From contig VMFU01000001.1 in NCBI GenBank assembly GCA_007376205.1, positions 94,661-158,660 of the forward strand: a stretch of DNA of 64,000 bases, given 5' to 3'. The stretch's first letter is position 1; the number at the start of each line of letters is the position of its first letter. This document shows positions 25,203-48,833 of the stretch, in pieces. The notes below the pieces were generated by a model that was given only the letters and a program-made list of their open reading frames with translations, searched no databases and was not told where the DNA came from. The position numbers and the translations under genes were made by a program. Source of the stretch: Candidatus Peregrinibacteria bacterium Gr01-1014_25. Lineage in GTDB: Bacteria > Patescibacteriota > Gracilibacteria > Peribacterales > Peribacteraceae.

Positions 25203-25254
25203 TGGTTTCTTTGGTTGCCTTCCTCGTAGACCTCCATTACTCTTGGCCCCACTC

Positions 25255-25464
25255 ATGGCACGTCAGTGCGTCAAAACCGGCCGCAAGACCGCCTTCGGGA
25301 ACACCCGCAGCCACTCGCTGCGCCACACCCGCCGGACGTGGAAGATCAATCTGCAGAAAAAGCGCGTCTTCGATCCCACAACCGGCGCGTACAAGACGTT
25401 GCGCGTCTCGACGGCCTACCTGCGCACGCTCGCGAAGCGCATGGCCGCCGGCAAATCCGCATAA
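25255..25464 (+). CDS. rpmB: 50S ribosomal protein L28
   Basis: [38 protein letters not shown].., 69 aa. Confidence 0.9.
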
Positions 25465-25477
25465 AAACCCTCCCCGT

Positions 25478-25500
25478 GTTCTTCCAAAAGAACTGTTTTT
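25478..25500 (+). terminator. Rho-independent terminator after rpmB
   Basis: GTTCTT-ccaa-AAGAAC hairpin followed by TGTTTTT. Confidence 0.5.
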
Positions 25501-25501
25501 G

Positions 25502-26428
25502 ATGTACAATGACCGGATGCCTCCCGATACACCCACATTCGAAAACCCCGACAAACCTCCGAAGGCGCCCATTGCGCCGGTGAATCCGGATAGGCCAAAA
25601 CCGGCGGTGCCTCCCGCCCCCGAAAACCCGGACAACCCAAAGGGCCCGAAGGCGGCGATGCGAAAGGAGGCCGAGAAAACGGATCGCCATCGCGATGCCC
25701 GCCTCGCCGATCGCCTCATGCGTAGTCCCGATCTGGACGAGGCACTGAAGCAACTGAAGCCACAGATCGACAATGTCCGTAAATTCATCGACGGCTCGTA
25801 CCATGAACAGCGCGGAATGAATCTCATTAAGATCTCCGAATTTCAGAAGGAAATCGACGTGCTCAATGGGCAAATCAAGCAGTTGCGTGATCAGGGAAAG
25901 AGCTTTGCCGCTACGGATGTGTGGGGTACCGCGTTGGGCATGGACATTGTGCCGGATGACATCGGCTTAAAGCTTCCGATGATCAGAAACCCCAAGATGA
26001 ACGATGCGTACTTTGCACGACAGAATCGCAAGGACACGCTGCATTCGCAGCAGCCTCTGCTGCTGCGCGTCAGGAAAGAAGGTCTTGCCCTGGTCGGCAA
26101 CGAAAACCGCGACGACGCAGTGGACGGCATTGATACGAATTTTATGACTCTGAAGTCGACGGGGACGCTGACCAAGGACGCTCAACGACACTTCATCATC
26201 GCACTCGGTCCGGTCGGGGCAAGGCAGAGTGACCTTCTCACCAGGCGTGCGGAGGCATACGGCATTCCCGTAACTGTGCAAAAATCAGGGAATACGCAGA
26301 CAGTGTGGCTGGATCTCCATGGGGCGGAATGGAAGAGTACGCAAAAACGTTTCTTGCAGCTCGACATTCCCAGCAATGACGTATCCGGTCGCCTGCAGCT
26401 CACCGACAAGCCTCCGTCGGCAAAATAA
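25502..26428 (+). CDS. Hypothetical protein with a Pro-rich NPDxP-repeat N-terminus (start may be ATG 25517)
   Basis: MYNDRMPPDTPTFENPDKPPKAPIAPVNPDRPKPAVPPAPENPDNPKGPKAA.., followed by a Lys/Glu/Gln-rich region. No family was recognised. Confidence 0.55.
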   Translation: MYNDRMPPDTPTFENPDKPPKAPIAPVNPDRPKPAVPPAPENPDNPKGPKAAMRKEAEKTDRHRDARLADRLMRSPDLDEALKQLKPQIDNVRKFIDGSYHEQRGMNLIKISEFQKEIDVLNGQIKQLRDQGKSFAATDVWGTALGMDIVPDDIGLKLPMIRNPKMNDAYFARQNRKDTLHSQQPLLLRVRKEGLALVGNENRDDAVDGIDTNFMTLKSTGTLTKDAQRHFIIALGPVGARQSDLLTRRAEAYGIPVTVQKSGNTQTVWLDLHGAEWKSTQKRFLQLDIPSNDVSGRLQLTDKPPSAK

Positions 26429-35702: not shown

Positions 35703-36122
35703 ATGGAACGTACGCTCATTCTTCTCAAACCCGATTGCATCGCCAAAGGCCTCTGCGGCGCGGTCATGTCGCGCTTCGAATCCGCCGGCTTCAAGATCCG
35801 CGGATGCAAGATGCTCCATCTGGGCAAGGACCTCTTGCGCGACCACTACGCGCACATCGCCGACAAGCCCTTCTACCCCGACGTCGAGAGTTTCATGGGC
35901 TCCACACCGGTCATCGCGCTGGTGCTGGAGGGGGCAAACAGCGTCGCGGCCGTCCGCGACATGCTCGGGCCGACCGACAGCCGCAAGGCGCCCAAGGGCA
36001 CGATCCGCGGGGACCTTGGGGTCGACATGATGGTGAACATCGCGCACGCGTCGGACTCGCCGGAGACGGCGCAGAAGGAAGTCGCGCGCTTCTTCAGCGA
36101 CGAAGAATTGTTTCCGTACTGA
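35703..36122 (+). CDS. ndk: Nucleoside-diphosphate kinase
   Basis: MERTLILLKPDCI.., NIAHASDS (active-site His). Confidence 0.95.
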   Translation: MERTLILLKPDCIAKGLCGAVMSRFESAGFKIRGCKMLHLGKDLLRDHYAHIADKPFYPDVESFMGSTPVIALVLEGANSVAAVRDMLGPTDSRKAPKGTIRGDLGVDMMVNIAHASDSPETAQKEVARFFSDEELFPY

Positions 36123-36134
36123 AGCTTCACGCCA

Positions 36135-38378
36135 TCAAATCAGCGGTTCCTCGAACTTCTCCTCGATGCTCGCGATCTCCCCTTCCTTTGGCGGCGCGGA
36201 GGCGGCTTCGTCCCATTTCTTCAGCATGTCTTCCACTTCCTGTTTCGGCGTGCAATATTTGCGACGTGAGGCGGCGATGATCTGATCCGAGTGATCCCAC
36301 TCGGGCCGCGGCGCGTCGAGTGTCCGACCGGAGAAGGCTTCCCGCAGCTCGCCGTTCACCGACATCTTGCAGTAGAGTTCACGTACGCCCAGGTTGATGA
36401 TGTCGCGCTCCTTGAAGACGGGGTTGTACTCCTCGGCGAGAATCTTGGCGTCCTCGGCGCCGACGCGGAAGCTGATCATGGAACCGACGTTGCCGAACAC
36501 GGTCTTGCGAACGACATCGTTGAGCTGGCCCATGTACTGGTGGGCGATGGTCAGGTTCAGGCGGTACTTGCGCGCTTCGGAGAGGATCTCGGCGAACGTG
36601 TCGGTCGCGAAGTTCTGGAACTCATCGACGTACAGGTAGAAGTCCGTGCGCTGGTCCTCGGGCGTGTCGGCGCGGCTCATCGCGGCCTGGTAGAGCTTCG
36701 TGATGAACATCGAGCCGATGAGCGACGAGTTCTCCTCGCCGAGCAGACCTTTGCTCACTTTCATGAGAAGAATTTTCTTCTGGTCCATGATCTCGCGGAT
36801 GGAGAATTTCGTCACCGGCTGCCCGATCATGTTACGGATCATGTTCGTGGCAACGAACTGGCCGACTTTGTTCAGCAACGGCGTGATCGCTTCGGCGTCG
36901 AATTTCTCCGACCATGCGGCGAACTCGCTGACCCAGAAGCTCTTCACGACGCTGTCCTGAATGCGCGCGACGATCTTCTGGCGGTAGTTCTTGTCGGTCA
37001 GCATCTTCAGGATCGAGAGCACCGTCGTGTTCGGACTGTCGAGGAGCGCGAGCGTCGTGTAGCGCAACACGTGCTCCAAGCGGTACGTCCAGTTGTCGCC
37101 GAACAACTTCTTGAAAATCTGCAGGAAGCCGATCGTCACCTGCATCTTGTAGGCGTCGTCGACCTTCTCGAGCGGGTTGAAGGCGATGGGGAAATCCGTA
37201 TCCGCCGGATCGAGAAGCACGACGTCGTTGATGCGGTGCTCGGGAATGTACCGCAGAATGGCGTCAATCAGATCGCCGTGCGGGTCGAGAACGGCGATGC
37301 CCTCGCCATTGCGCAAATCGTCATTGATGAGGAGCTCAAGGAGCTTGCTTTTGCCCGATCCGGACTTTCCCACGGCGTAGAGGTGCCGACGACGGTCGGC
37401 GCGACGGATGCCGAACGGCACGAAATTGTTGTGGTAATTCGTCACGCCGAAACCGCTCACGTCCTTCTCGCCTATCTTCGGAAGATCCTGTGGCGGATCC
37501 GATTTGCGCGCGAGAACGTGGACGATGTGCGGGACGTAATCGGCGTTCGGGAAGTGGTAGAGCGTCGCCACTTCCTTCGCGCTCAATATGAACGTCTTCG
37601 TATGCCTGCGGGACCGGTACTGCTCGATGAAGCGGGCGTCAACGGCGGCGGCGTGGCCGTGGAAGCTATTGATGTCGCTGTCATTGAACTGCGAGAAGCT
37701 ACCAATGATCGCCTCGAGTTTGCGGACGGCCGTCGCTGTGTCGCTGGAAATGTACGCGCAGCGGATGCTCACCTTGTATGGCTTGATGCCGAGTTTTTCG
37801 TTCGCGCGTTCGTGCCGGACGGCGGCGATGCTCTTGCGTCCGCCCTCGCGCAAGCGGTCGCGGATGCTGAAGAAATGCCGCATATTGGCCAGACGCATTC
37901 TCCACTTGCGCACGAAGTGGTAGCCGCCCGTATCGTCCTGCGGCTCCGCTATGATCTGTACCCACACCTGGTCACCCGCGCTGATCTTCGAAATGACTGC
38001 GAACAGTCGCGACAGGCTGTCCTCCTCAAACAGATCGTACGTCTTGATGGGGTAAATATCGGAATGATGCAACGTGATGACGGTCCCGGCGACCCCATGA
38101 CTTGTTCCTTCGACGCCGGCGGTATAGTCGGCCGTCTCTTTGATCTCGGCATCAGGGAACGCCGTGTAAATCAAACCTTCCACCGTCTCGAAGAGGCGCT
38201 CCTCCACAACGACGAAGAAATAGGTGTACTGATTGGCTCCGTAAAATTCGAGAGAAATCGGTGTCCCTGTGAATGTATTACGCATGTTCACCAGCAATTC
38301 CTGGAACTTCGATTCCAGTTTTACTCGCCCCTCAACGCCTTGGGGGATAACCACATGAAGGTAGCGCAGAGCAGCCAT
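36135..38378 (-). CDS. Type IV secretion coupling-protein-like ATPase (TraD/TraG/VirD4 C-terminal NTPase type) with an uncharacterised N-terminal domain and no TM anchor
   Basis: 747 aa. Walker A is AVGKSGSGKSKL. The Walker B/TraG-D_C-like region is FYLYVDEFQNF..ARKYRLNLTIAHQYMGQL. The N-terminal 330 aa or so are hydrophilic. Confidence 0.7.
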   Translation of the reverse strand: MAALRYLHVVIPQGVEGRVKLESKFQELLVNMRNTFTGTPISLEFYGANQYTYFFVVVEERLFETVEGLIYTAFPDAEIKETADYTAGVEGTSHGVAGTVITLHHSDIYPIKTYDLFEEDSLSRLFAVISKISAGDQVWVQIIAEPQDDTGGYHFVRKWRMRLANMRHFFSIRDRLREGGRKSIAAVRHERANEKLGIKPYKVSIRCAYISSDTATAVRKLEAIIGSFSQFNDSDINSFHGHAAAVDARFIEQYRSRRHTKTFILSAKEVATLYHFPNADYVPHIVHVLARKSDPPQDLPKIGEKDVSGFGVTNYHNNFVPFGIRRADRRRHLYAVGKSGSGKSKLLELLINDDLRNGEGIAVLDPHGDLIDAILRYIPEHRINDVVLLDPADTDFPIAFNPLEKVDDAYKMQVTIGFLQIFKKLFGDNWTYRLEHVLRYTTLALLDSPNTTVLSILKMLTDKNYRQKIVARIQDSVVKSFWVSEFAAWSEKFDAEAITPLLNKVGQFVATNMIRNMIGQPVTKFSIREIMDQKKILLMKVSKGLLGEENSSLIGSMFITKLYQAAMSRADTPEDQRTDFYLYVDEFQNFATDTFAEILSEARKYRLNLTIAHQYMGQLNDVVRKTVFGNVGSMISFRVGAEDAKILAEEYNPVFKERDIINLGVRELYCKMSVNGELREAFSGRTLDAPRPEWDHSDQIIAASRRKYCTPKQEVEDMLKKWDEAASAPPKEGEIASIEEKFEEPLI

Positions 38379-38392
38379 AAACTTGGTGTCTT

Positions 38393-38420
38393 ACATTAGC
38401 ACATTTTTGGCTATTTTCAA
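38393..38420 (-). promoter_or_regulatory. Candidate extended -10 promoter in the 60-nt gap upstream of the ATPase gene
   Basis: On the coding strand: TTGAAA-N16 (ending TGC)-TAATGT, 14 nt before the ATG. It shares the 8-mer GTGCTAAT with the array promoter candidate at 45220-45227. Confidence 0.35.
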
Positions 38421-38438
38421 AGGAAAACCGCCCGCTCC

Positions 38439-40130
38439 TTACTCTCCAAACTCCTGCTCGTACACATCCCTATCCCAAAGAATAAAGGGGCTCTCCGGAG
38501 GATATGTCGTCCGGATCGGCCTGCCCGTCTTCGCGCATGCGCGATCGTAGAGATGAATGCCGCCGAGCTTTTTGGCGCGTTCTTCCATACGCTCGTCGTA
38601 TGTCATGCGGGGCAAGGGAACATTGAACTGCCGGTAGCGCTTGAGCTCCTGCGACGTGATCTTGAAGGGGCGGCCGGACAGGGCGCTCTGTACGATCATG
38701 GAGTCGTCGGTCTGCGGCAAGCTGTCGGGGAGCGCGGAAGAATCGATCGCTTCCGTCATGCTGACCGGCTCTTCGTGCCATGTCAGTCCCGCTTCCAATG
38801 CCTGGTTTTTGGTGAGAGGAAAATGGCGCTGCGCTTGCGAGCGGTTGTACGGATGCGGCGTGCGTGACAACGGGAAAAATTCGCCCCATTCCCCTGCCTG
38901 CCGCATCTGCTCGATAAGCTTCGGCATGAGCGCTTCGTACTCTTCTTTCGTATACTGCTTGTTCAAGATGCAGTATTTCTTGTGGTTCAGGCTCACGCAG
39001 CCGAAACACTGTTCGCACGCGTCGCAGTGCCAGCAGTACAGAAGATCGCTGCTGCCGGCACGACACTGATAGCAGAACGCGAGCCGCTGGATGTCGATGC
39101 CGCACGTCGCGCACTCGTAGATGAGCTCCGCGCGGCGTCCGAACAGCGAGTAATCGCGGCAGTCTTTGATGCCTTCGTGGAGATTGAAGCAATGCCGCAG
39201 ATTCTCCCCATGCTGAATGAAAAAGCTGTCATGGACGTCTTTCGCCTCGAGGATGAAATTCCCAGAAACGTCTTCCGTCTGCCGCAGGATTGCATGGGGA
39301 CGTGGGTGGCGCAGGCAAAGTTCCCTCCAGCGTTGATCCATCTCCGCGCGCTGGCGACGGGAACGCGCATCAAAGCCGTGGAGGAAAGCTTCGTACTCGT
39401 CACGTGTTTTCTGTTCGTTGAAGATGCAGTACTCGCGCCGCCGCAGATTCACGCAGCCGAAGCAGTGTTTGCAGGAACGGCACAGGGAAAGGAAGGTGCT
39501 TTCCTGGCAGTCCTCGCAATACTCCGAACTCTGCAACGCATAGCAGCGCGTGCATGCCGTGCAGTCGTAGCACAGCTCCGATTGCCGCGTGTGCGTGCAT
39601 TCGACGCAGTCGCGCGATCCCCAGGCGTTCTCGCAGTACATGCAATCTTCGGCGAGCGACGTATTGAAGACCATGTAGCAGTTCTTGTTGTCCGAAAGAT
39701 TGTTGCAGTACTCGCAATTCTCGTTGCGCGTCGCGGTGAGCGCGGGCTGGGGTACTTCCCGCTGCAACGCGAAAAATTGCGAGAAGAACGATTGGAACAG
39801 ATCAACGTCCCGTCCGTACCGCAACGGGTCCCATCCGTCGCCAGACCATTCTTCGATGGGAACCACGGGGAATGGAACGGAAGTGGGGTACACGGAGAAC
39901 ATCGGCTGCCCCGTCGATGACGACGGCCGCGAATAGACGTAAATCTCCGTGCGAAACGCCAGCCGCCGCTGCAAGCGGCACTCTGGACATAGCGTTGGCG
40001 GAGGAACGTCGCATCGCACCCCGCCAAATATTGGGCCGATCTTCTCCAAGAATGCGAGATCGTCATCCGTAACCTCAAAAGTCGCTTGGCACTGTGCACA
40101 GGTTCGCCGACCGACAATGGGCTGTTGCAT
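38439..40130 (-). CDS. Cysteine-rich repeat protein, paralog A (unknown family)
   Basis: 563 aa with 37 Cys by my count. Domain order is: N-terminal CxxC..CPxC module, two Cys-rich modules each ending CFGCV.L....YC..N.Q.T..EYEA, then a C-terminal module with its Cys residues lost. Confidence 0.8.
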   Translation of the reverse strand: MQQPIVGRRTCAQCQATFEVTDDDLAFLEKIGPIFGGVRCDVPPPTLCPECRLQRRLAFRTEIYVYSRPSSSTGQPMFSVYPTSVPFPVVPIEEWSGDGWDPLRYGRDVDLFQSFFSQFFALQREVPQPALTATRNENCEYCNNLSDNKNCYMVFNTSLAEDCMYCENAWGSRDCVECTHTRQSELCYDCTACTRCYALQSSEYCEDCQESTFLSLCRSCKHCFGCVNLRRREYCIFNEQKTRDEYEAFLHGFDARSRRQRAEMDQRWRELCLRHPRPHAILRQTEDVSGNFILEAKDVHDSFFIQHGENLRHCFNLHEGIKDCRDYSLFGRRAELIYECATCGIDIQRLAFCYQCRAGSSDLLYCWHCDACEQCFGCVSLNHKKYCILNKQYTKEEYEALMPKLIEQMRQAGEWGEFFPLSRTPHPYNRSQAQRHFPLTKNQALEAGLTWHEEPVSMTEAIDSSALPDSLPQTDDSMIVQSALSGRPFKITSQELKRYRQFNVPLPRMTYDERMEERAKKLGGIHLYDRACAKTGRPIRTTYPPESPFILWDRDVYEQEFGE

Positions 40131-40141
40131 GGCCTTCTAGT

Positions 40142-41815
40142 CTACGACCCAAACTCTTTCTCGTACACATCCCGATCCCAAATGATGTACGGGCTGTCCG
40201 GCGGATACGTCGTCAGAATGGATTGTCCCGTCTTGGCGCATGCGCGCTGGTAGAGATGGATACCGCCAAGCTTCCGTATTCTCTCCTCCATTCGCTCGTC
40301 GTACGTCATGCGGGGCAGGGGAACGTTGAACTGCCGGTAGCGGCGGATTTCTTCGGACGTGATCTTGAACGGCCGTCCGGAGAGTGCGCTGCGAACGATG
40401 ATGGGATCGTCCTGAGCCGGTAATCCGTCCGGCAGCGACGAGACTTCGACGGCCTGTTTTGCTTCGGGGATCTGCTGGTCGTACCAATGCAATTTCTGCG
40501 TTGCGGCTTCCGACTTCGTCAGGGGGAAGTACCGTTGGGCAAGCGAGTAGTTGTACGGACCGAACGCCTCGGTCATTGGGAAAAATTCGCCCCACTCCCC
40601 TCTGAAACGCATATGCGCGATGATTGTCGGCACCAACGCCTCGTATTCCTCCTTCGTATACTGCTTGTTGAACACGCAATGGTGCTGCTTCTTTAAGCCG
40701 ACGCAGCCGAAACAATCGCGGCAACCGACGCAACCCTGGCAATACAACATGTTGGACGTGTTGGTGTGCACTTCGTAGCAGCACAGGAGACGTTGCGCGT
40801 TGATCCCGCAACTGACGGCTTCGTAGACCAATTCCGCCTTGTTACCCCAAACCGAATAATCGCGGCAATCCTTCGATCCGTGGACTCCGAAACAATATGT
40901 AAGATCCTCGTCGTTGGAACAAAAAAACGATCCTTGGACGTTGCGGGAATGCAGCACGATATTCCCGGCACACTGTTCCACTTGGCGTAAAATGACATTG
41001 GGGCGCGGGTGTTGCTGGAAGAAAACCTGGGTCTTCCGCCGCATATCTTCCCGCCAGGCATGTGATGATGCGGGAAGGCCACGAAGGAACGCATCGTATT
41101 CCGCCTTGGTCTTCTGTTCGTTGAAAACGCAATACTCCGCATGACGAAGATTCACGCAGCCGAAGCAGTGTTTGCAGGAACGGCAATTCAAGAGAAAATG
41201 GCTATCGCTGCAGTGTTCGCATTGTTGGGAGCTCTGCAGGTTGTAGCAGTTCTCGCAGAGCGTGCAGTCGCAGCACAATTGCGACGAGACGATCATCGTG
41301 CAGTCCAAGGTATTTACGGAGCTGTTCATCATTTCGCAATACATGCCGTCTTCGCCTCCCGTGGTATTGAAAACCATGTAGCAGTTTTTGAGCTCACCGG
41401 CATTGACGCAATAATCGCTGTTTTCCAGATTGGAAACCGAACGCGCGATATGCGGGACCTGCGATCGAAGCTCGTGAAATTGCTCGTGAAAGCTTTTCCC
41501 GAAATCAAAAGTTTGCCCCGCGGATAGCCCGTTCCAGGCATCACCCCACCATTCTTCATTACTGATAACAGGAAACCCCACGTCCTCTGGCCACGAGGAA
41601 AATATCTGTTTCCCTGACAAGGACGACGTTCGCGAAAAAACATGGATTTGATTCCGAAACGCCAGCCGCCGCTGCAGCCGGCACTCCGGACACAGCGTCG
41701 GCGCGGGGATCGCCTCTTTCTTCCCGTTGAACACGGGGGAAACTTTGTCGAGGAACGCGAGGTCGTCGTCGGTGATCTCGAATCCTGCCTGACATTGCCT
41801 GCATGACTGTTGCAT
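40142..41815 (-). CDS. Cysteine-rich repeat protein, paralog B (unknown family)
   Basis: 557 aa, colinear with A. The C-terminal ~85 aa are near-identical to A (GRPFKITS.E..RYRQFNVPLPRMTYDERMEER..KLGGIHLY.RACAKTG). There is an 11-nt gap to A. Confidence 0.8.
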   Translation of the reverse strand: MQQSCRQCQAGFEITDDDLAFLDKVSPVFNGKKEAIPAPTLCPECRLQRRLAFRNQIHVFSRTSSLSGKQIFSSWPEDVGFPVISNEEWWGDAWNGLSAGQTFDFGKSFHEQFHELRSQVPHIARSVSNLENSDYCVNAGELKNCYMVFNTTGGEDGMYCEMMNSSVNTLDCTMIVSSQLCCDCTLCENCYNLQSSQQCEHCSDSHFLLNCRSCKHCFGCVNLRHAEYCVFNEQKTKAEYDAFLRGLPASSHAWREDMRRKTQVFFQQHPRPNVILRQVEQCAGNIVLHSRNVQGSFFCSNDEDLTYCFGVHGSKDCRDYSVWGNKAELVYEAVSCGINAQRLLCCYEVHTNTSNMLYCQGCVGCRDCFGCVGLKKQHHCVFNKQYTKEEYEALVPTIIAHMRFRGEWGEFFPMTEAFGPYNYSLAQRYFPLTKSEAATQKLHWYDQQIPEAKQAVEVSSLPDGLPAQDDPIIVRSALSGRPFKITSEEIRRYRQFNVPLPRMTYDERMEERIRKLGGIHLYQRACAKTGQSILTTYPPDSPYIIWDRDVYEKEFGS

Positions 41816-41822
41816 AAGGAGG

Positions 41823-43496
41823 TTAGTATACCTCCTTCAGATAGCATTCCTCGCAATAGACGATCTCTGGCCTCTCCGGGCCGTACGTCGTCTGGATCGC
41901 CTTCCCGCACTTCGCACACGCGCGCGGCCAGAGGTGGCGGGGATTGCGGAGAGCGAGGCGATCACGATGACGCTGATCCGGGCAGCGGCGCGGGATTGGG
42001 AGCCGCATGCGACGATAGAATTGCAATTCTTGCGGGATGATTTTGTAGGGTTTGCCGGTCACTTCGCAACGGAGGATGCGATCGCAGATATCATCCTCCG
42101 CGCCGTCGATCGATTCGGGGATCGCCTGCGCCGGACCCATGTACGCGTCTTCCTTCGCCTGCCCGTCATACCACTTCCATTGGCGGCGGAGCACATCATC
42201 CCTCTCCATCGGAAAATACTCTTGAGCGAGCGTTTCGTTGTATCCCATGGTGGAGAGGCACGGATCGGGATACGCGCCCCATTCTCCGGTTTTCCGCATG
42301 TGCTCGATGATCTTCGGCACGAGAACTTCGTACTCCTCTTTGGAATACTGCGCATTCAAGATACAATGCTGCTTGCGCTTCATGCCGCTGCAGCCGAACA
42401 CATCCGTGCAGTGATGACATTCGCGGCTGTAGTAGACATCACTGCCGTACCACGACAGAAAAGTCCCCATGCAGCGCTCGCCGCCGACGGTGGAATTGAC
42501 GTTGTAACAGAATCGCACTCCCGCCGGAGCCGTGTAATTGGCATCCTGGCTCATGAAGCCCTTCGGGGTGTTGGAAATATGGGCGCAATCCTCACATCCC
42601 GTGCAATCGAATGCGTCGTGGCAATTCTTTGAATTGAAGATCATATCGCCGGTACATCCTTCGCTGCCGAAAACGTACGACGCGCGATGCGGCAGGGTTT
42701 TTTTGAGATCCTGGAACTTCGCGCGCATGAGGCGAACGTGTTCCTGCGTCAGCGGCGTGAGTTGTTTCATGCGCTCCTCGTATTCTTCTTTGCCGAGACG
42801 CTCATTGAGGAAGCAATATTCCTGGCCCTTCAGGCCGAAGCAGAGGCAGCAATTCTTGCAGTTCTGGCAATCTTCGACCATGAGGCAGTTGCTGCAATTG
42901 TACGAATAGAGAGCGTAGAAACATTCGTAGCACCCCTGGCAGGCAACGCTTTCGTATGACCATTGGCATGAGTAGAGCGACAGCGCGTCGACGACATTGC
43001 TGCAGCTGATGACAAAGCGGCCGTACAGGGAATCCTCGATGTCCGTCGCGCCGGCGATGAGATAGGTATTGCGGGCGTTGAGCGAGTGATTCGTGTAGTA
43101 GCTGTTTTCGGCGTTCGTCGTGAAGAGCGACATATGCGGGACGACGTTGTTCAGATCCGCAAATTGCTCGGCGAACGTTCTGGAAAAATCGAAAGGCCTG
43201 CCGTACGAACGCTCATCCCACTGATCGCTCCACCACTCATCCTGATCATAGACGGTATACGGCTTATCCGGAGCGTACATCGACACGATTTGCTTGCCCG
43301 TCAGATCGGACTTGCGATGGTACAGAGTGAGATCGTTGCGGAAGAGCAGCCGCCGTTGCGTCCGGCAATCCGGGCACAGCGTCGGCGGCAGGATGATTTC
43401 TTTTTTTCCTTGGAACACCGGCGAAACATTCTCCAGAAATGTACGATCGCCGGAGGTGACCTCGAATGCGGCCGAGCATTGTTTGCAGGTGGGCAT
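41823..43496 (-). CDS. Cysteine-rich repeat protein, paralog C (unknown family)
   Basis: Start set at MPTCKQCSAAFEV (43496), which overlaps the stop of D by 1 nt (TGATG). 557 aa. The C-terminal module retains CAKCGK..VYCEECY. Confidence 0.8.
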   Translation of the reverse strand: MPTCKQCSAAFEVTSGDRTFLENVSPVFQGKKEIILPPTLCPDCRTQRRLLFRNDLTLYHRKSDLTGKQIVSMYAPDKPYTVYDQDEWWSDQWDERSYGRPFDFSRTFAEQFADLNNVVPHMSLFTTNAENSYYTNHSLNARNTYLIAGATDIEDSLYGRFVISCSNVVDALSLYSCQWSYESVACQGCYECFYALYSYNCSNCLMVEDCQNCKNCCLCFGLKGQEYCFLNERLGKEEYEERMKQLTPLTQEHVRLMRAKFQDLKKTLPHRASYVFGSEGCTGDMIFNSKNCHDAFDCTGCEDCAHISNTPKGFMSQDANYTAPAGVRFCYNVNSTVGGERCMGTFLSWYGSDVYYSRECHHCTDVFGCSGMKRKQHCILNAQYSKEEYEVLVPKIIEHMRKTGEWGAYPDPCLSTMGYNETLAQEYFPMERDDVLRRQWKWYDGQAKEDAYMGPAQAIPESIDGAEDDICDRILRCEVTGKPYKIIPQELQFYRRMRLPIPRRCPDQRHRDRLALRNPRHLWPRACAKCGKAIQTTYGPERPEIVYCEECYLKEVY

Positions 43497-45154
43497 CAGT
43501 AGACAGTGGCAAGGTAACACTCTTCGCAGTAGACGATTTCGGGGGCGTTGGGTGCAAACGTCGTGCGGATGCCTTTCTGACACTTGCCGCATGTGCGCTC
43601 ATAGAGCACGCGCTTGTGCCTTTTCTTCAGGCGAAGCTCGTGACGCTCATCGGGTGAAATGCGAGGGAGTGGGATGTTCAACCGTTGATAGAATTCCCAC
43701 TCTTGCGGGATGATTTTGTACGGCTTTCCGGATGCGGCTGATGTCAGAATTTTCGCTGTCACATCATCTGATGCATCACGAATACTGTCCGGCAGCTCTA
43801 TCGCGGGCCCCATATATTTCTTCGTTTGTTCTTCCTCTTCGTCATGCCATTGCCATCCTTTCGCAAGCGTCTCTTTCTTCGTGAGGGGTATCTGCTCCTG
43901 CGCAAGAGATTCGTTATAAGCGTATATGCTCTTGTCAACGGGAAAGAATTCACCCCATTCACCGGTCCGTTTCATGTGTTCGATGATGCGCGGTACAAGC
44001 TTTTCGTATTCCTCCTTTATGCACTGCTTATTCAGAATGCAATACGTCTGTTTCTTGAGGGATACACATCCGAAGCAATTTTTCGTAGAGAAGCACTGAT
44101 CGCAGTAGGTTAGATCGCTGCAATTGGTCCAGCAGAGATTGCAAAAACGCAGCTGAAATAGGTCGTAGCCACATGCCTGGCATTCGTACATCTTCTCGGT
44201 ATTCCCTCCCCAATAGCTGAAATCCACACTGTCCTTCGCATCGTAGACGCACATGCAGTAGCGGATATCCTCGCTTCTATCGCACTCAAAGCAGGTGAAG
44301 GCGTTTTTACTGTCCTGCAAGTAATCACCGACACAGTTTTCGGCATTCGTTCCGGTAAATTCTTTCACGATGATTTTTCTGGAGAAATCATCGAATGTCT
44401 GTCTGCTCTTTTCCATTTGGATGAAACTACCCGTATCCACGCTCTGGAGGAACGCTTTGTACTCCCCCTCGGTCTTTTGCTCATTGAATACCATGTACTG
44501 CTTCTGCACTTGGTTGAAGCAGAAGAAACAATCGCTGCAACCAATGCAGTTGCGCAGAAAGAACGAATCGCTGCAATTGGTGCACTCTTGGCTGTAGCGC
44601 ACGTTGTAGCAATGACGACACCCGACACAGTCGTAACAGAGTTCGCAGGCATCGATGTTGGTGTTGTCTAAGCAATCCTTCGATTGATTCACCCAGGAAC
44701 CGTAGTAACAATCTTCGCAATGATTGGTGGAAAATACGAGATAGCAGTTTTTATTCATGCTTGCGCAATTGCAGTAATCGCTATTGACCATAGGTTTCTG
44801 TTGTTGAAGAGCGAGGCGGGGCACGACATCGCGTAACGCGAAGAACTGTTCAAAGAACGGTTTGTTGAAATCGAATTCCCTGCCATACGAGAGCGGGTCC
44901 CAGTCATCGCTCCACCACGCATCAATGTCATATACGGGAAACGGTTTATCAATGGAAAACGACGAAACAATTTGCTTGCTGGTCAGGTTGCATTTTCGAT
45001 GATAGAGAAAACGTTCGTTTCTGTAGCTCAGCCTCCGTTGCATCCGGCAGAGATAGCAGTGCGTCGGCGCCGGTACATGCATATCATCGTAGAACGCGAG
45101 ATCCTCGGGGGTTACAGCAAAGCCGGCGGCGCACTGGACACACGTTTTCTGCAT
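43496..45154 (-). CDS. Cysteine-rich repeat protein, paralog D (unknown family)
   Basis: Start set at MQKTCVQCAAGF (45154) by analogy with paralogs A-C; the ORF could extend to 45214. There are 42 Cys by my count. The C-terminal module retains CGKCQK..VYCEECY. Confidence 0.75.
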   Translation of the reverse strand: MQKTCVQCAAGFAVTPEDLAFYDDMHVPAPTHCYLCRMQRRLSYRNERFLYHRKCNLTSKQIVSSFSIDKPFPVYDIDAWWSDDWDPLSYGREFDFNKPFFEQFFALRDVVPRLALQQQKPMVNSDYCNCASMNKNCYLVFSTNHCEDCYYGSWVNQSKDCLDNTNIDACELCYDCVGCRHCYNVRYSQECTNCSDSFFLRNCIGCSDCFFCFNQVQKQYMVFNEQKTEGEYKAFLQSVDTGSFIQMEKSRQTFDDFSRKIIVKEFTGTNAENCVGDYLQDSKNAFTCFECDRSEDIRYCMCVYDAKDSVDFSYWGGNTEKMYECQACGYDLFQLRFCNLCWTNCSDLTYCDQCFSTKNCFGCVSLKKQTYCILNKQCIKEEYEKLVPRIIEHMKRTGEWGEFFPVDKSIYAYNESLAQEQIPLTKKETLAKGWQWHDEEEEQTKKYMGPAIELPDSIRDASDDVTAKILTSAASGKPYKIIPQEWEFYQRLNIPLPRISPDERHELRLKKRHKRVLYERTCGKCQKGIRTTFAPNAPEIVYCEECYLATVY

Positions 45155-45217
45155 TACGGAGGGGGGATCGGTGACGCCCCCATGCTGCACGGATGAGCAC
45201 ATTCTGTCCAACATTGA

Positions 45218-45245
45218 AAATTAGCACTAGTATTTTTTATTTCTA
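45218..45245 (-). promoter_or_regulatory. Candidate promoter of the Cys-rich array
   Basis: On the coding strand: TAGAAA-N16 (ending TGC)-TAATTT. The predicted TSS near 45211 would lie downstream of the 45214 ATG, which favours the 45154 start. Confidence 0.35.
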
Positions 45246-45261
45246 TGAAGCCAAAAATTGA

Positions 45262-45270
45262 TGATAAAAT
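45262..45270 (+). promoter_or_regulatory. Candidate extended -10 (TGATAAAAT) for the TrmB-like gene
   Basis: TGnTAAAAT lies 24 nt upstream of ATG 45295, in an AT-rich 80-nt divergent region. Confidence 0.35.
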
Positions 45271-45294
45271 TGTGTAGAAAAAGTTCGACAACAG

Positions 45295-46131
45295 ATGTAT
45301 TCTCTTGCCGAAAGCATGATCTCCGAACTCCTCAAGCTCGGCCTCACGGATGAAGAAGCCCGTGTGTATCTCGCATGCCTCGAGATCAACGGCGGTCCCG
45401 TGTCACTCATCGCGAAGAAGGCGAACACCCATCGCGTGAGCTGCTATCACACCCTCGAGAATTTGCTGCGGAAAAATCTCTTGAGCCAGTACAACCGCAA
45501 CGGCGTGAAATGTTTCGCGCCGGAGCCGCCCGAGCAGTTGCTCAAGCTCACGGAGGAAAAGGTGCATCTCGCCCGCGGCCTGCTCCCACAGCTGCAGTCC
45601 ATCGCTAGCACGCTGGCATTCAAACCGAAGATCCGCTTCTACGAAGGGCGCGACGGCGTGGAACGTGTGTACGGCGAATCGCTCGAGCTGCGGCCGGAGA
45701 TCGACGCGAAGAAACAGCGGGCGGACCACGGCATCGTGCGCGGCGCGGCGCCCGCCGAAATCCTGGGATACACGAACCTCAAGACCGTCACGACGTTCTT
45801 CCCTGAATTTTTCCGCCAATACACGCACGAACGTTTGTGCCGCGGCATCAAGACGCGCTACCTGTCACCGACGACCGTCGAGAGCGTGCACGCCATCGAC
45901 CCTTTCCTGCCGTCGCGGTACGACGCCAACCTCATCGAAATCCTCCTCGTGAACAAGGAACAATTCCCGTTCGACAACGAAGTGCTGATCTTCGGCAGCA
46001 AAGTCTGCGTCGTGTCGCTCAATCCCGACGAATTGCTCGGCCTCGTCGTGGAAAGCGCGACATTCGCACGGACGATGAAGGCGGTGTTCGATTTAGCATG
46101 GCTTGGCGCGACGGCCTTCGTCGCCAAGTGA
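45295..46131 (+). CDS. TrmB-family transcriptional regulator (winged HTH)
   Basis: LLKLGLTDEEARVYLACLEINGGPVSLIAKKANTHRVSCYHTLENLLRKNLL is a typical TrmB N-terminal HTH. 278 aa. Confidence 0.75.
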   Translation: MYSLAESMISELLKLGLTDEEARVYLACLEINGGPVSLIAKKANTHRVSCYHTLENLLRKNLLSQYNRNGVKCFAPEPPEQLLKLTEEKVHLARGLLPQLQSIASTLAFKPKIRFYEGRDGVERVYGESLELRPEIDAKKQRADHGIVRGAAPAEILGYTNLKTVTTFFPEFFRQYTHERLCRGIKTRYLSPTTVESVHAIDPFLPSRYDANLIEILLVNKEQFPFDNEVLIFGSKVCVVSLNPDELLGLVVESATFARTMKAVFDLAWLGATAFVAK

Positions 46132-46763: not shown

Positions 46764-48017
46764 ATGCCGCCGAATTTCTCGCCAATCTCGCGCCCGTTGC
46801 TCGTCGTCTGCCTGCTCATCATCAGCCTCGCCATCGGGTGGAGGCTGGGGGGGCAAGCGGAGCGCGTGCACCTCGCCGTGGAGCATGAGCGCATTGCCGA
46901 GCTTTTCCGGCAGAGCGATGACGCGGTCACGGACGATCCGGAGAAAAGCGTCTCGCTCGATTTGCTCTGGAGTGTGTGGCGTCTACTCCAAGACCACTAC
47001 ATCGATCCGGGCGATCTGAAGCGGGGTCCGATGGTGTACGGCGCCGTGCGGGGCATGGTCAGCGCGATCGGCGATCCGTACACGTCGTTCCTGACGCCCG
47101 AGGAACACGCCGAATTCCAGGAGGGGCTCGACGGCCACCTGCAGGGCATCGGCGCGGAATTGAGCACGCGCGACGGGCTGATCGTCATCGTCTCGCCGAT
47201 CAAGAAATCGCCGGCCGAACGTGCGGGGCTGCTTCCGGGCGACATCATCACGGAGGTCGACGATTGGCCCACCTATGGCAAAACTCTCGCGGAAGTCGTG
47301 AAGCGCATCCGTGGCAAGCGCGGCACGACCGTGACGCTGACGATCGAGCGCGACGGCGAGCGCGAACCGGTCTCCGTCACGATCACGCGCGCAGACATCA
47401 CCGTCCCCAGCGTCGAATTGCGCTATCAAAAGGACAAACAGGGAGTGATCGCCATTGCGGAAGTGAACCAGTTCGGTTCGGACACGACCGCGGAATTGAC
47501 GTCCGCGCTGCGAGATGTCCTGCGCCACGGGAACATCAGTGGCTTGGTACTTGACCTGCGATACAACGGCGGCGGCTACCTGACCGGAGCGGTGGAGATG
47601 TCGTCGCTGTTCCTCACGAAGGGCAAAGTCGTGACGGTTGAGCGCCGCGAAGGCGAGCCGCAGCGCCATTACGTCGACGGGCGGCCGCTCCTCCCCGATC
47701 TGCCGATGGTCATCCTGATCAACGAGGGAACGGCGAGCGCGGCGGAGATCGTCGCCGGCGCGCTTCGGGACGCGGAGCGCGCGACGATCGTCGGCACAAA
47801 GAGTTTCGGGAAGGGAACGGTGCAGGAGGTCATCGAACTCCCCGGCGGAAGCAGCCTGCGCGTGACGACGGCACACTGGCTCACGCCGAGCGGCCGCAAT
47901 CTCGCCAAGGAAGGCATTACGCCGGACGTCGTCGTGGAACGCACGAAAGAAGACCGTGAAGCGAACCGCGATCCGCAACTGGACGCGGCGATCGCGCATC
48001 TCCTGAAGGGGAGATGA
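46764..48017 (+). CDS. Carboxyl-terminal processing protease (peptidase S41)
   Basis: TM anchor, PDZ domain (SPAERAGLLPGDIITEVDD), catalytic INEGTASAAEIVAGAL and GTKSFGKGTVQ. Confidence 0.9.
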   Translation: MPPNFSPISRPLLVVCLLIISLAIGWRLGGQAERVHLAVEHERIAELFRQSDDAVTDDPEKSVSLDLLWSVWRLLQDHYIDPGDLKRGPMVYGAVRGMVSAIGDPYTSFLTPEEHAEFQEGLDGHLQGIGAELSTRDGLIVIVSPIKKSPAERAGLLPGDIITEVDDWPTYGKTLAEVVKRIRGKRGTTVTLTIERDGEREPVSVTITRADITVPSVELRYQKDKQGVIAIAEVNQFGSDTTAELTSALRDVLRHGNISGLVLDLRYNGGGYLTGAVEMSSLFLTKGKVVTVERREGEPQRHYVDGRPLLPDLPMVILINEGTASAAEIVAGALRDAERATIVGTKSFGKGTVQEVIELPGGSSLRVTTAHWLTPSGRNLAKEGITPDVVVERTKEDREANRDPQLDAAIAHLLKGR

Positions 48018-48121
48018 AGCTCCACCGGCGTACGCCGGTGGCATCTTCAGATGCTGCAGCGCAACCGCGCCGAAGCATATCCGGCTACGCTTGCGAGCTA
48101 CGCCGCGATACCCGCATTCAT

Positions 48122-48147
48122 CCACCACCTGACGGTGGTGGCTTTCT
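48122..48147 (+). terminator. Hairpin CCACCACC-tgac-GGTGGTGG followed by CTTTCT
   Basis: 8-bp GC-rich stem with a short pyrimidine/T tract, downstream of the S41 protease gene. Confidence 0.4.
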
Positions 48148-48206
48148 GCGGAGGCGGGTAAAAGCAACCCGTAGCCTTGGCGAAGGAGGGTCGGTATCCT
48201 CATTGC

Positions 48207-48833
48207 ATGCGCCTTCCCGCCGAGCTCGAGCGGCGTCTGACGGAACTTTTCCCCCGCGTGCGGGAGCGCGAGCGTTTCATCGCGGACACGCTGCGCGCGG
48301 CGCTCGAGGGCAAACCCGCGCCGGAGGAGGACCAACCGACGGCCATCGGCGGCACGCTGCATTTGTTCACCGATGGCGGATCGCGGGGCAATCCTGGGCA
48401 AGCGGCCATCGCCTGCATCCTGGAAGACCCCATCGAAGGCAAGGTTCTCGCCGAGCACGCGGAAACGATCGGCGTGGAGACGAACAACGTCGCCGAGTAC
48501 AAAGCGTTGATTGCCGGCCTGGGGTTGGCGAAAAAATTCCAGCCCAACCGTCTCATTTGCCACCTCGATTCCGAGCTCATCGTCCGCCAGCTCAACGGTG
48601 AGTACCGCGTGAAAATGCCCGCGCTCAAGGTGTTCGTCGATGAAGTGCAGTCACTCGCCGCCGAACTGCCCGACGTCGTCTTCTTGCACATCCCGCGCGA
48701 GGACAACTACCGCGCGGACTCGCTCGTGAACCGCGCACTCGACGAAGAAGCGAAGGCGCGGAAGGGTACCATGCCTCCACGGCGCCCCACGCCCCGACCC
48801 GAGCCGCCGCAGCGAAAGTGGGAGTGGGAATGA
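48207..48833 (+). CDS. rnhA: Ribonuclease HI family protein with an N-terminal extension of about 45 aa
   Basis: LFTDGGSRGNPGQAAIA, ETNNVAEYKALIAGL, DSELIVRQL and HIPREDNYRADSLVNRA (DEDD residues). The start could be 48177. Confidence 0.8.
   Translation: MRLPAELERRLTELFPRVRERERFIADTLRAALEGKPAPEEDQPTAIGGTLHLFTDGGSRGNPGQAAIACILEDPIEGKVLAEHAETIGVETNNVAEYKALIAGLGLAKKFQPNRLICHLDSELIVRQLNGEYRVKMPALKVFVDEVQSLAAELPDVVFLHIPREDNYRADSLVNRALDEEAKARKGTMPPRRPTPRPEPPQRKWEWE

Follow-up and report, generated by a model that had tools for sequence, protein, structure and literature searches.

What kind of protein places 34 cysteines in 557 residues, and what do those cysteines do? The question is raised by paralog B, one of four copies in a tandem array (order D-C-B-A) of Candidatus Peregrinibacteria bacterium Gr01-1014_25, for whose products Pfam, NCBIfam and PADLOC gave no match to the body of the protein. 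The array lies in a 64,000-nucleotide stretch of contig VMFU01000001.1 (the window, to which all coordinates refer). A sequence-only reading had proposed homologous zinc-ribbon-like modules at the two ends of each paralog, and between them a duplicated Cys-rich module forming a β-solenoid with 18-residue coils.

The locus and its protein family

The genes of the locus, listed from the regulator to the end of the operon, are as follows.

45295..46131, plus strand: divergent TrmB-like HTH regulator, 278 aa (Pfam TrmB, 8.9e-8)
45273..45290, no strand: 18-bp palindrome TGTCGAA-N4-TTCTACA in the TrmB/array intergenic region, a putative operator
43496..45154, minus strand: paralog D, 552 aa counted from MQKTCVQC; the ORF call reaches 45214
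41823..43496, minus strand: paralog C, 557 aa counted from MPTCKQC
40142..41815, minus strand: paralog B, 557 aa, from the ORF list, coordinates including the stop codon
38439..40130, minus strand: paralog A, 563 aa, 57% identity to B
36135..38378, minus strand: DUF8128 plus TrwB/VirD4-like P-loop ATPase, 747 aa, last gene of the operon

The stop codon of D and the start codon of C overlap by 1 nt (TGATG), and the other gaps in the operon are 7, 11 and 60 nt; promoter and terminator consensus scans gave background level only. The upstream ATG of paralog D, at 45214, falls inside a DNA box conserved in the non-coding leaders of related loci. Paralog B (pI 6.1) is predicted to be a soluble, cytoplasmic protein, no TM segment or signal peptide being found in its sequence; paralog D contains 42 cysteines.

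The family is large, with 2,607 database homologs of paralog B at E≤1e-3 and at least 3,300 clusters (3,347 at 50% identity), mostly in Peribacteria, and up to about seven tandem copies occur at a locus. A single homolog (P0212) carries a GNAT fusion. No publication on the family came up in literature searches for CXXC β-helices, ladders of cysteines, or HerA/zinc-ribbon arrays of Patescibacteria.

The N-terminus of the ATPase is DUF8128 (PF26449), and its P-loop domain matches the Pfam families T4SS-DNA_transf (36.4 bits, cutoff 20.1) and TrwB_AAD_bind (25.8 bits, cutoff 20.5), the best-covering PDB relative being TrwB (residues 327-623, E 1.9e-4). It shares this domain with the VirD4/TrwB coupling proteins but lacks their N-terminal membrane anchor, as no TM helix is found (maximum KD19 1.24). 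Nor was a T4SS channel gene set found near it, the ten ORFs Pfam-scanned as a subset of the 25-56 kb region being housekeeping or without match; phage matches of the ATPase were uninformative. In related genomes the ATPase gene follows immediately after family arrays; it adjoins the array in 8 of the 42 loci in which the downstream side is visible. The linkage is absent in one Peregrinibacteria genome, where the ATPase is 72% identical, and in Bdellovibrionota; being partial, it could reflect clade-level synteny.

At the other end, of the 56 related loci with a visible upstream side, 18 have a divergent TrmB homolog at the head of the array, and the palindrome, with the consensus TGTAGAA-N4-TTCTACA, recurs next to the start of TrmB in at least 13 of the related loci. 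TrmB regulator, family array and ATPase constitute a conserved cassette. The complete genome of Ca. Peribacter riflensis has the same cassette, as genes 657-664 (PMC4736985, supplement 2), where the counterparts are matched on gene order, size and annotation only, not on sequence. There, genes 658, 659, 661, 662 and 664 encode proteins of 550-570 aa (Anantharaman et al. 2016, PMC4736985, supplement 2), accompanied by a 748-aa COG0433/K06915 ATPase and a TrmB regulator (PMC4736985). The family homologs are listed in that work as C-rich hypotheticals only, without analysis (PMC4736985).

Domain organisation and the terminal modules

Paralog B is a seven-segment protein in which each of two solenoids is followed by helices. 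Its segments are listed from the N-terminus, and this overall architecture is, as mapped, very probably correct.

41552..41815, minus strand: N-terminal zinc module, residues 1-88; AF2 pLDDT >90, a hairpin and then a helix after CPxC
41456..41551, minus strand: conserved linker, residues 89-120, helical in AF2; family consensus WW.D.WD..YG..FDF..FF.QF..L...VP
41111..41455, minus strand: Cys-rich module 1, residues 121-235, a parallel β-solenoid of about 9 coils of 12 residues
41006..41110, minus strand: helical hairpin after module 1, residues 236-270, containing ..EY.AF...; AF2 helices 237-245 and 252-266
40658..41005, minus strand: Cys-rich module 2, residues 271-386, a degenerate copy of module 1
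40421..40657, minus strand: conserved helical region, residues 387-465, AF2 pLDDT 90-97; family consensus GEWGEFFP....P.PYN.S.AQRYFPL
40145..40420, minus strand: C-terminal copy of the terminal module, residues 466-557; zinc ligands lost, C526 alone kept

Both ends of paralog B are diverged copies of one module of about 85 residues. In Smith-Waterman alignment the first 100 aa match the last 110 aa at z = 9.7-16 in the four paralogs, a score reached by 0 of 500 shuffles, and the terminal alignments proposed earlier are reproduced; profile-profile comparison with hhalign spans 80 columns at a probability of 99.8% (E 1.7e-28). The ancestral form of the module had a pair of Cys4 zinc sites: a first, treble-clef-like CxxC...CPxC site with an arginine-rich helix after it, and a second site that is a CxxC-x17-CxxC ribbon. 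Two arginines, R46 and R50, are invariant in a 118-sequence alignment and nearly so in a more diverse alignment of 84 sequences.

Of these sites paralog B retains just one, the first in its N-terminal copy, with C5/C8/C42/C45 intact and the second ancestral site (64/67/85/88) absent. In the C-terminal copies of B and A only one of the eight ancestral ligand positions is left, which makes these copies metal-free relics. The description of both ends as zinc ribbons therefore holds in that they are related zinc-finger-type modules, but not for the C-terminal copy of these two paralogs. Elsewhere the C-terminal copy is better preserved: paralogs C and D, like about half of the family, have a CxxC-x17-CxxC site there at 526/529/547/550, that of C being intact.

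Across the family the Cys tetrads of the terminal modules are kept or lost all-or-none, as seen in the co-occurrence coefficient phi, which is 0.80 for 8/45, 0.98-1.0 within 67/85/88, 0.73-0.95 within 479/504/507 and 0.98-0.99 within 529/547/550. By this measure the terminal modules behave as classical Cys4 zinc sites.

Two β-solenoids with 12-residue coils

The two central Cys-rich modules are an internal duplication, as the sequence-only reading held (Smith-Waterman z = 8.6-16.4; hhalign probability 99.95%, E 3.3e-38, 125 columns). Their common ending, read as having four residues between L and C, is indeed present in both modules but has five, CFGCV.L.....C..N.Q.T..EY.A. The cysteine indices given for module 1 of paralog B (1, 16, 28, 37, 38, 40, 43, 46, 55, 58, 67, 70, 73, 76 and 85) are exactly right, and 14 of these 15 cysteines fall in one residue class modulo 3 (P = 6.5e-6). 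This class is 94% Cys/Ser/Ala/Val/Ile/Leu/Thr/Gly/Met, against 24-35% in the other two classes, and the Cys autocorrelation peaks at all multiples of 3, most strongly at lags 3, 9 and 12. As each third residue of these very thin helices faces the core, the distances between cysteines are all multiples of three. In module 2 the lattice shifts phase within residues 321-345. No DNA-level tandem repeat was found behind the periodicity, which excludes a DNA-repeat origin.

Between the ends, paralog B forms two homologous parallel β-solenoids with coils of 12 residues, lengthening to 13 in the middle of module 2. In a direct-coupling analysis (DCA) of 469 homologs, 25 of the top 60 couplings of module 1 are at i/i+12, tiling residues 132-231 and including surface positions, as in parallel in-register stacking; module 2 has 13 of 60 at i/i+12 and 10 of 60 at i/i+13, with 12-residue coils at 283-319 and 356-378 and 13-residue coils at about 315-363. 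The module 1 repeat has the consensus C-Y-x-C-x-x-h-x-x-S-[EK]-[ND]. Shifting the profile against itself is best at 12, and Cys co-occurrence is highest at separations of 12 (0.145) and 9. The AF2 model of full-length B (pTM 0.85) places strands at 127, 139, 151, 163, 173 and 185, and strands likewise recur every 12 residues in a module-only model (pLDDT 81). The nearest PDB structure to the module 1 model in Foldseek is the antifreeze protein of the beetle Tenebrio molitor, TmAFP (1ezg), a non-significant match (E 0.7, TM 0.22/0.36), and all but one of the PDB neighbours listed are β-solenoids. It is on the DCA offsets, the AlphaFold spacing and TmAFP as nearest match that we assign both modules to β-solenoids with 12(-13)-residue coils. 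Full-length DCA was also run to find contacts between the modules, but artefacts from indels and subfamilies prevailed in it and it was set aside.

These data bear directly on two other views of the central modules. That the solenoid has 18-residue coils, as a left-handed helix or an RTX-like one in which cysteines 18 apart stack as ladders or metal sites, was suggested by the cysteines themselves, which do form 18-spaced sets, and would suit the CxxCxxCxxC-x8 segments 181-198 and 211-228, each 18 residues long, as well as the weak Foldseek matches of the full-length model, mostly to LbH acyltransferases (E≥1.7). Once the 3-residue lattice is taken into account, however, the 18-residue period is no better than chance, with 12 Cys pairs at multiples of 18 observed against 12.5 expected (z = -0.29). 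DCA places 1 of 60 couplings at 18 in module 1 and none of 60 in module 2, against 25 and 13 at 12, Cys co-occurrence at 18 is 0.007, the profile self-shift score there is negative, and neither RTX Pfam matches nor, in the four paralogs or 84 family members, Hexapep matches were found; we regard an 18-residue coil as extremely unlikely. The modules might instead be beads on a string, their CxxC pairs forming discrete zinc ribbons or knuckles with no solenoid at all. Many CxxC pairs in a cytoplasmic protein would fit such beads, as would the moderate confidence of the Cys-rich modules in the full-length model (pLDDT 50-67 only, from AF2, which does not model metals) and the want of a significant structural neighbour, Foldseek searches of the PDB with full-length and module models giving nothing at E < 0.1 and a PDB sequence profile search only a marginal LIM-like match to the C-terminus (E 0.49). 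Independent knuckles are at odds with i/i+12 couplings that run constant across whole modules, surface positions included. Nor do they agree with a lattice that persists where Ser, Thr, Ala, Ile or Val replaces Cys, as in coils 1-5 of module 1 in paralog C, which lack almost all lattice cysteines (in paralog A the module 1 lattice is fully populated), or with module cysteines that, unlike the true terminal zinc sites, are not all-or-none. We consider the beads very unlikely and retain the solenoid, in 12-residue register.

The core cysteines

The module cysteines stack on successive coils, every third residue facing the core. Their lattice positions alternate between Cys, Ser, Ala, Val and Leu across the family, with pairwise Cys phi of at most 0.4, so that on sequence variation they seem to behave as exchangeable core residues, unlike the all-or-none Cys4 sites of the termini. 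Family members have even Cys counts in 130 and odd counts in 125 sequences. Free exchange of the core cysteines with Ser, Ala and Val, and the lack of a bias to even numbers, leave ladders of metal sites or disulfides unproven. A search for Cys4 tetrads within module 1 by the all-or-none test gave modest enrichment, and no tetrad was assigned. The best-conserved Cys segment of each module is a C-x2-C-x2-C-F-G-C-x8-C cap.

A metal-stapled helix, in which stacked CxxC pairs hold a row of Zn (or Fe/S, Cu/Cd) within or alongside the helix for storage, metal binding or redox sensing, has arguments in its favour: the CxxC pairs of successive coils should be about 4.8 Å apart (inferred from the 12-residue register), Cys co-occurrence peaks at separations of 12 and 9, the optional CxxC-x8-CxxC set 193/196/205/208 tends to co-appear, the cluster 211/214/217/220 is conserved at 86-95%, and a cytoplasmic location speaks against disulfides. 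Against it, most lattice cysteines are individually dispensable, many sequences keep three of the four cysteines at candidate module 1 tetrads, paralog C has whole stretches of helix without Cys, and no His, Asp or other ligand pattern is present; a continuous row of metals is thus improbable. Disulfides would enter if the proteins were exported, as TmAFP-like antifreeze, ice-binding or adhesin molecules, or as type IV secretion effectors oxidised after export. TmAFP is, after all, the nearest PDB structure, Cys-rich exported proteins are known in Peribacteria (PMC4736985), and a VirD4-like ATPase is encoded next door. Yet signal peptide and TM segment are absent, Cys counts are as often odd as they are even, co-occurrence at the i/i+6 spacing of TmAFP is negative (-0.14), module 1 has no TxT motif in B, C or D (0-2 across the paralogs), the ATPase has no membrane anchor, and the Cys-rich proteins highlighted for Peribacter are a different set, much larger, exported and bearing signal peptides (PMC4736985). 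We judge export with disulfide bracing highly unlikely. That the lattice is core packing, with metal binding partial at most, we rate at even odds.

A possible role for the array

The explanation that we favour overall, with a probability of roughly 0.6, combines the architecture above, cysteines that mainly pack the core, and paralogs that act as a set of adaptors or substrates. The core cysteines would be mainly compact core residues, and zinc may sit on stacked CxxC pairs of successive coils, in the cap at least. Each paralog would display surfaces of its own on the rigid helices, and could dock a partner, protein or nucleic acid, through its terminal zinc modules. The TrwB/VirD4-like ATPase, anchorless and co-transcribed with the array, might then be what the paralogs serve as adaptors or substrates, with the divergent TrmB-like regulator in control. 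The functional link to the ATPase is itself tentative, and we would call it doubtful on present evidence. A bolder version, which we think quite unlikely, makes the solenoids a new metal-thiolate β-helix, with a linear row of Zn or Fe/S on CxxC rungs, and the paralogs cargo or adaptors of the ATPase in dealings between episymbiotic Peribacteria and their hosts.

Among the gene sets of Peribacteria and Gracilibacteria-type CPR bacteria that lack annotation, the family stands out as one of the more conspicuous, and our analysis supplies it with a domain map, a testable fold and a genomic cassette. It also tells the real zinc sites, at the termini, from the questionable ones in the helix core. 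A β-helix with Cys-lined 12-residue coils inside a cytoplasmic protein is unusual: if its core cysteines bind metal they represent a new way to build a protein metal array, and if they do not, they are a neat case of cysteine as packing residue in a minimal solenoid.

Comparison with known systems

Matches of the terminal modules to known zinc fingers are weak. Among 84 family members, zf_Tbcl_2 (PF23477) matches 54 (best E 2.9e-7) and zf_Tbcl (PF13451) 12; paralogs C and D score 23.2 and 21.7 bits with zf_Tbcl_2, below its cutoff of 27, and 20 and 18.2 with the NCBIfam treble-clef model TIGR04272, below its cutoff of 36. What zf_Tbcl_2 and TIGR04272 have in common with the second terminal site of C and D is the exact CxxC-x17-CxxC spacing; the two CxxC pairs are not found in B or A, where C526 alone is left, and the three models span about 35 of the roughly 560 family residues. 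Likewise weak are the matches to LIM, seen in 6 of the 84 members with a best E of 0.018 and in PDB CRP1 at E 0.49. Double fingers of LIM and glucocorticoid-receptor-like type place two consecutive Cys4-type zinc sites in one module of about 60-85 residues. The ancestral terminal module carries two co-varying tetrads, and its first loop is much longer than that of LIM domains.

The Cys-rich solenoid module is shared with uncharacterised phage proteins of about half the family length that have no terminal zinc modules. All four paralogs weakly match the phage protein group phrog_15341 (E 1e-4 to 2e-3), and Foldseek against BFVD finds A0A8S5RUL5 over 149 columns (E 6.7e-6, probability 1.0, TMq 0.51). 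Phage genomes and viral contigs contain next to nothing of the family itself: among 50,697 phage genomes tblastn with paralog D gave no match, and a scan of viral contigs gave one family fragment.

Of the solenoids with known structure, left-handed β-helices have 18-residue coils built of [LIV]-G-x4 hexapeptides, which are not seen here (1/60 and 0/60 couplings at 18). The RTX β-roll and Ca2+-bound β-helices of the MpAFP type are a precedent for metal ions bridging successive solenoid turns; these extracellular proteins bind Ca2+ through Asp and Gly carbonyls, and their repeats have 9 or 18 residues. They have no sequence or Pfam similarity to the family and are relevant only to the metal-stapled helix. 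TmAFP is a secreted right-handed β-helix with 12-residue coils of the repeat TCTxSxxCxxAx, in which i/i+6 disulfides cross each coil. With the family it shares the 12-residue coil, a very narrow core lined by every third residue, and Cys, Ser and Ala as filling, without sequence homology. The differences are equally plain: TmAFP is secreted with a TxT ice-binding face, whereas the family has neither signal peptide nor such a face, and it pairs its cysteines at i/i+6 in disulfides, whereas those of the family are paired at i/i+3, with no bias to even numbers.

Architecture and gene organisation

We put the probability at about 0.9 that paralog B, one of four tandem Cys-rich proteins (A to D), is a soluble protein of seven segments with one intact Cys4 site and two solenoids of 12-residue coils, as judged from sequence analysis and structure prediction. 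Its gene lies in a tandem array bounded by a regulator and an ATPase:

from 45295, divergent to the array: TrmB-like regulator
43496-45154 (-): paralog D, first in the tandem array
41823-43496 (-): paralog C, second in the array
40142-41815 (-): paralog B, third of the four; ORF of 557 aa with 34 Cys (6.1%)
38439-40130 (-): paralog A, fourth in the array
36135-38378 (-): ATPase, 747 aa, 60 nt past paralog A

The other paralogs are 33-57% identical to A. Their genes are packed as an operon, with gaps of 7 nt (C-B) and 11 nt (B-A), and the D stop and C start share one base (TGATG, 43494-43498), which suggests translational coupling. G+C content is 51-59% over 36-46 kb (36001-46000, a span with the ATPase, all four paralogs and the beginning of the TrmB gene) and 62-66% in the flanks, which carry housekeeping genes (PheT, MetK, NDK, a class A PBP and VanW); the rest of the window is at 61-68%, except for two more dips, one at 24-26 kb and the other at 56-60 kb. 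Constraint on composition or past acquisition could explain the low G+C of the cassette, i.e. regulator, array and ATPase, which is nevertheless syntenic in related genomes. Two ORFs of this high-GC window, at 46983-48563 (-, 526 aa) and 25193-26428 (+, 411 aa), have no Pfam match and may be spurious or further uncharacterised genes.

The intergenic region between the TrmB-like gene and paralog D holds an 18-bp palindrome, TGTCGAA-CTTT-TTCTACA (45273-45290), one mismatch from a consensus (TGTAGAA-N4-TTCTACA) that at least 13 related Peribacteria loci carry no more than about 120 nt from the TrmB start and that occurs 28 times in 934 kb overall; the palindrome is plausible as a putative TrmB operator. 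In the leader of D (45155-45214) a 'TGTTGGAC' box is kept at the DNA level in the non-coding leaders of related loci, and since this box overlaps the upstream ATG at 45214, the real start of D is probably the ATG at 45154. The leader also contains a GC hairpin, GGGGGCGTCACCGATCCCCCC (45161-45181), possibly an attenuator or leader structure, and a hairpin with a T-run occupies the equivalent place in related loci.

Central modules and their solenoid fold

The two central Cys-rich modules of B, module 1 (residues 121-235) and module 2 (271-386), are homologous, in agreement with the sequence-only reading (SW z 8.6-16.4; hhalign probability 99.95%, E 3.3e-38, 125 columns). Both end in CFGCV.L.....C..N.Q.T..EY.A, five residues and not the four given earlier separating L from C. 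The same reading had indexed fifteen cysteines of module 1, all exactly, and had seen in them an 18-residue period; this dissolves once Cys are confined to every third residue, pairs at multiples of 18 then numbering 12 against 12.5 expected. The main signal in the modules is this three-residue lattice. Cys autocorrelation is raised at every multiple of three, one residue class modulo 3 holds 14 of the 15 Cys (P = 6.5e-6), and a search for a DNA tandem repeat behind the pattern found none. In 94% of sequences the lattice positions of residues 133-228 carry Cys, Ser, Ala, Val, Ile, Leu, Thr, Gly or Met, compared with 24-35% for the other two classes, and module 2 shows the same lattice (95% in 283-320), which slips in phase mid-module.

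The solenoid call combines covariation with AlphaFold. Mean-field direct-coupling analysis was applied to 469 family sequences (Neff about 425), drawn from 255 database hits and 226 ORFs from 84 related loci, and the top 60 couplings with |i-j| >= 4 were taken per module. In module 1, 25 of these are exactly 12 apart and four are 11 apart, separations of 13 and 18 occur once each, and the i/i+12 couplings tile residues 132-231 unbroken. In module 2, 13 are 12 apart, 10 are 13 apart and a separation of 18 does not occur; offsets of 13 residues lie at about 315-363 and account for its phase slip. Such a constant offset in sequence indicates parallel in-register stacking, i.e. a solenoid, and this signal is independent of AlphaFold. 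The full-length AlphaFold2 model (pLDDT 82.5, pTM 0.85, but just 50-67 in the Cys-rich parts) places strands at 127, 139, 151, 163, 173 and 185, and module 1 of paralog A modelled alone (pLDDT 81) has two strand series with 12-residue spacing. All but one of its PDB neighbours found by Foldseek are β-solenoids, with Tenebrio antifreeze protein, whose coils have 12 residues, at the top, similarities that are non-significant (all E >= 0.7) and serve solely to indicate the fold class of the model. The β-solenoid proposed from the sequence thus stands, but with coils of 12 residues (13 in mid-module 2) in place of 18.

Written in rows of twelve, module 1 gives the repeat C-Y-x-C-x-x-h-x-x-S-[EK]-[ND], with ladders of Asn/Asp before the first Cys and of alternating Glu/Lys. 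CxxC pairs sit at core positions 1 and 4 in coils 133-184, move to 7 and 10 in 187-214, and return to 1 and 4 from 217 on; the 18-spaced Cys sets are a by-product of this switching.

Core cysteines

The odds are about even that the core cysteines are mostly for packing and partly for metal, and the sequence evidence for stacked Cys as metal sites is lukewarm. Cys co-occurrence peaks at separations of 12 (+0.145) and 9 (+0.085), as fits partners on neighbouring coils; at 6 it falls below zero, and at 18 it is nil. Lattice Cys correlations are weak (phi <= 0.4), candidate tetrads frequently have three of four members, Ser, Ala, Val and Leu freely replace lattice Cys, and the first five module 1 coils of paralog C are almost without Cys. 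Disulfides like those of the Tenebrio molitor antifreeze protein (TmAFP) are disfavoured, because Cys counts show no even bias (even in 130 sequences, odd in 125) and no signal peptide or TM segment is predicted. The best-conserved set is a C-terminal cap in each module, C-x2-C-x2-C-F-G-C-x8-C, at 211/214/217/220/229 in module 1, where the first four are 86-95% Cys, and at 362/365/368/371/380 in module 2. These caps are the most plausible candidate for a metal site inside the modules.

Terminal modules

Pairwise comparison aligned the N-terminal 100 with the C-terminal 110 residues in every paralog (z 9.7-16; none of 500 shuffles reaches the score) and reproduced the alignments of the sequence-only reading, which held the two ends to be homologous; family profiles leave no doubt about this homology (hhalign probability 99.8%, E 1.7e-28, 80 columns). 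Cys presence and absence in 255 homologs resolved two ligand tetrads per copy, 5/8/42/45 and 64/67/85/88 at the N-terminus and 476/479/504/507 and 526/529/547/550 at the C-terminus. Variable Cys of one tetrad are gained or lost jointly (phi 0.98-1.0 for 67/85/88 and 529/547/550; 0.73-0.95 for 479/504/507), which indicates that an ancestral module of ~85 residues had two Cys4 sites. The first combines a knuckle with CPxC and leads into an arginine-rich helix, in which R46 and R50 are nearly invariant, and the second is a CxxC-x17-CxxC ribbon. In B and A just one site is left, the first one in the N-terminal copy, and the C-terminal copy is down to a lone Cys (C526). The C-terminal CxxC-x17-CxxC survives in C and D, and no other part of any paralog touches a curated model (here zf_Tbcl_2 and TIGR04272, with both scores under the cutoff). 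Among 84 family members, 54 match zf_Tbcl_2.

Family distribution and the conserved cassette

HMMER against 1.84 billion representatives retrieved 3,347 clusters at E <= 1e-3, of which 1,338 reach E <= 1e-30; nearly all are of about 560 aa and the same architecture. A scan of one genome per species gave at least 570 loci, overwhelmingly in Candidatus Peribacteria, Peregrinibacteria and Gracilibacteria, with some in other Patescibacteria; a few named matches are Bdellovibrionota or Oligoflexia. One homolog, P0212 (731 aa), has an N-terminal GNAT acetyltransferase domain fused to the full family body, a single case that may be a gene-call fusion. Tandem copies are frequent, up to six where the array is wholly covered by the fetched locus and about seven where it is longer. 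Of 56 loci with that side visible, 18 have a divergent TrmB homolog at the head of the array, and the ATPase follows in 8 of 42; these statistics are based on 84 fetched loci, whose flanks of 6-10 kb mean that long arrays are undercounted.

The ATPase, DUF8128 (PF26449) plus a TrwB/VirD4-like P-loop domain with no membrane or TM anchor, is 70-82% identical across Peribacteria among the 120 clusters listed, far better conserved than the paralogs, and also matches phrog_5156 (7e-73) and PADLOC mad8 (6.6e-12). From the ATPase outward, family genes lie immediately upstream in two of three sampled contexts, orthologous genes of 563 aa and 557 aa among them; the third, a Peregrinibacteria genome, has none. 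T4SS_pilin (PF18895) genes lie 2-10 kb from family genes or the ATPase in several related contigs (L002 20852-21665; L003 10224-11094; L087 1-1021), with none among the window ORFs scanned. The complete genome of Ca. Peribacter riflensis carries the same cassette (genes 657-664), matched by gene order, size and annotation (PMC4736985); its homologs are annotated just as C-rich hypotheticals with 'glucocorticoid receptor-like' zinc fingers (PMC4736985, supplement 2), and the Cys-rich exported proteins stressed in that paper are a different set (PMC4736985).

Proposed working and comparison with known systems

The solenoids would be rigid rods of about nine coils, or roughly 4 nm, each, with outward-facing residues that vary from paralog to paralog, and the terminal modules, carrying conserved Arg-rich helices, would dock a partner. 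The set might then provide TrmB-controlled adaptors or substrates for the co-transcribed ATPase, a functional link that we regard as rather unlikely.

The modules would work fold-wise like minimal β-helices of the TmAFP type, but differ in having no significant similarity, i/i+6 disulfides, TxT face or secretion signal, which rules out membership of that family; identity with hexapeptide (18-residue) helices is likewise rejected. For the terminal modules, the relatives are the 'probable treble clef' models zf_Tbcl, zf_Tbcl_2 and TIGR04272, with scores under the threshold. Structural neighbours reach significance only among predicted viral proteins, above all the uncharacterised 312-aa A0A8S5RUL5 (E 6.7e-6), and the PHROG family phrog_15341 is a weak match. 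Set against these known systems, what would be new is a CxxC-lined solenoid core within a predicted cytoplasmic, zinc-finger-capped protein.
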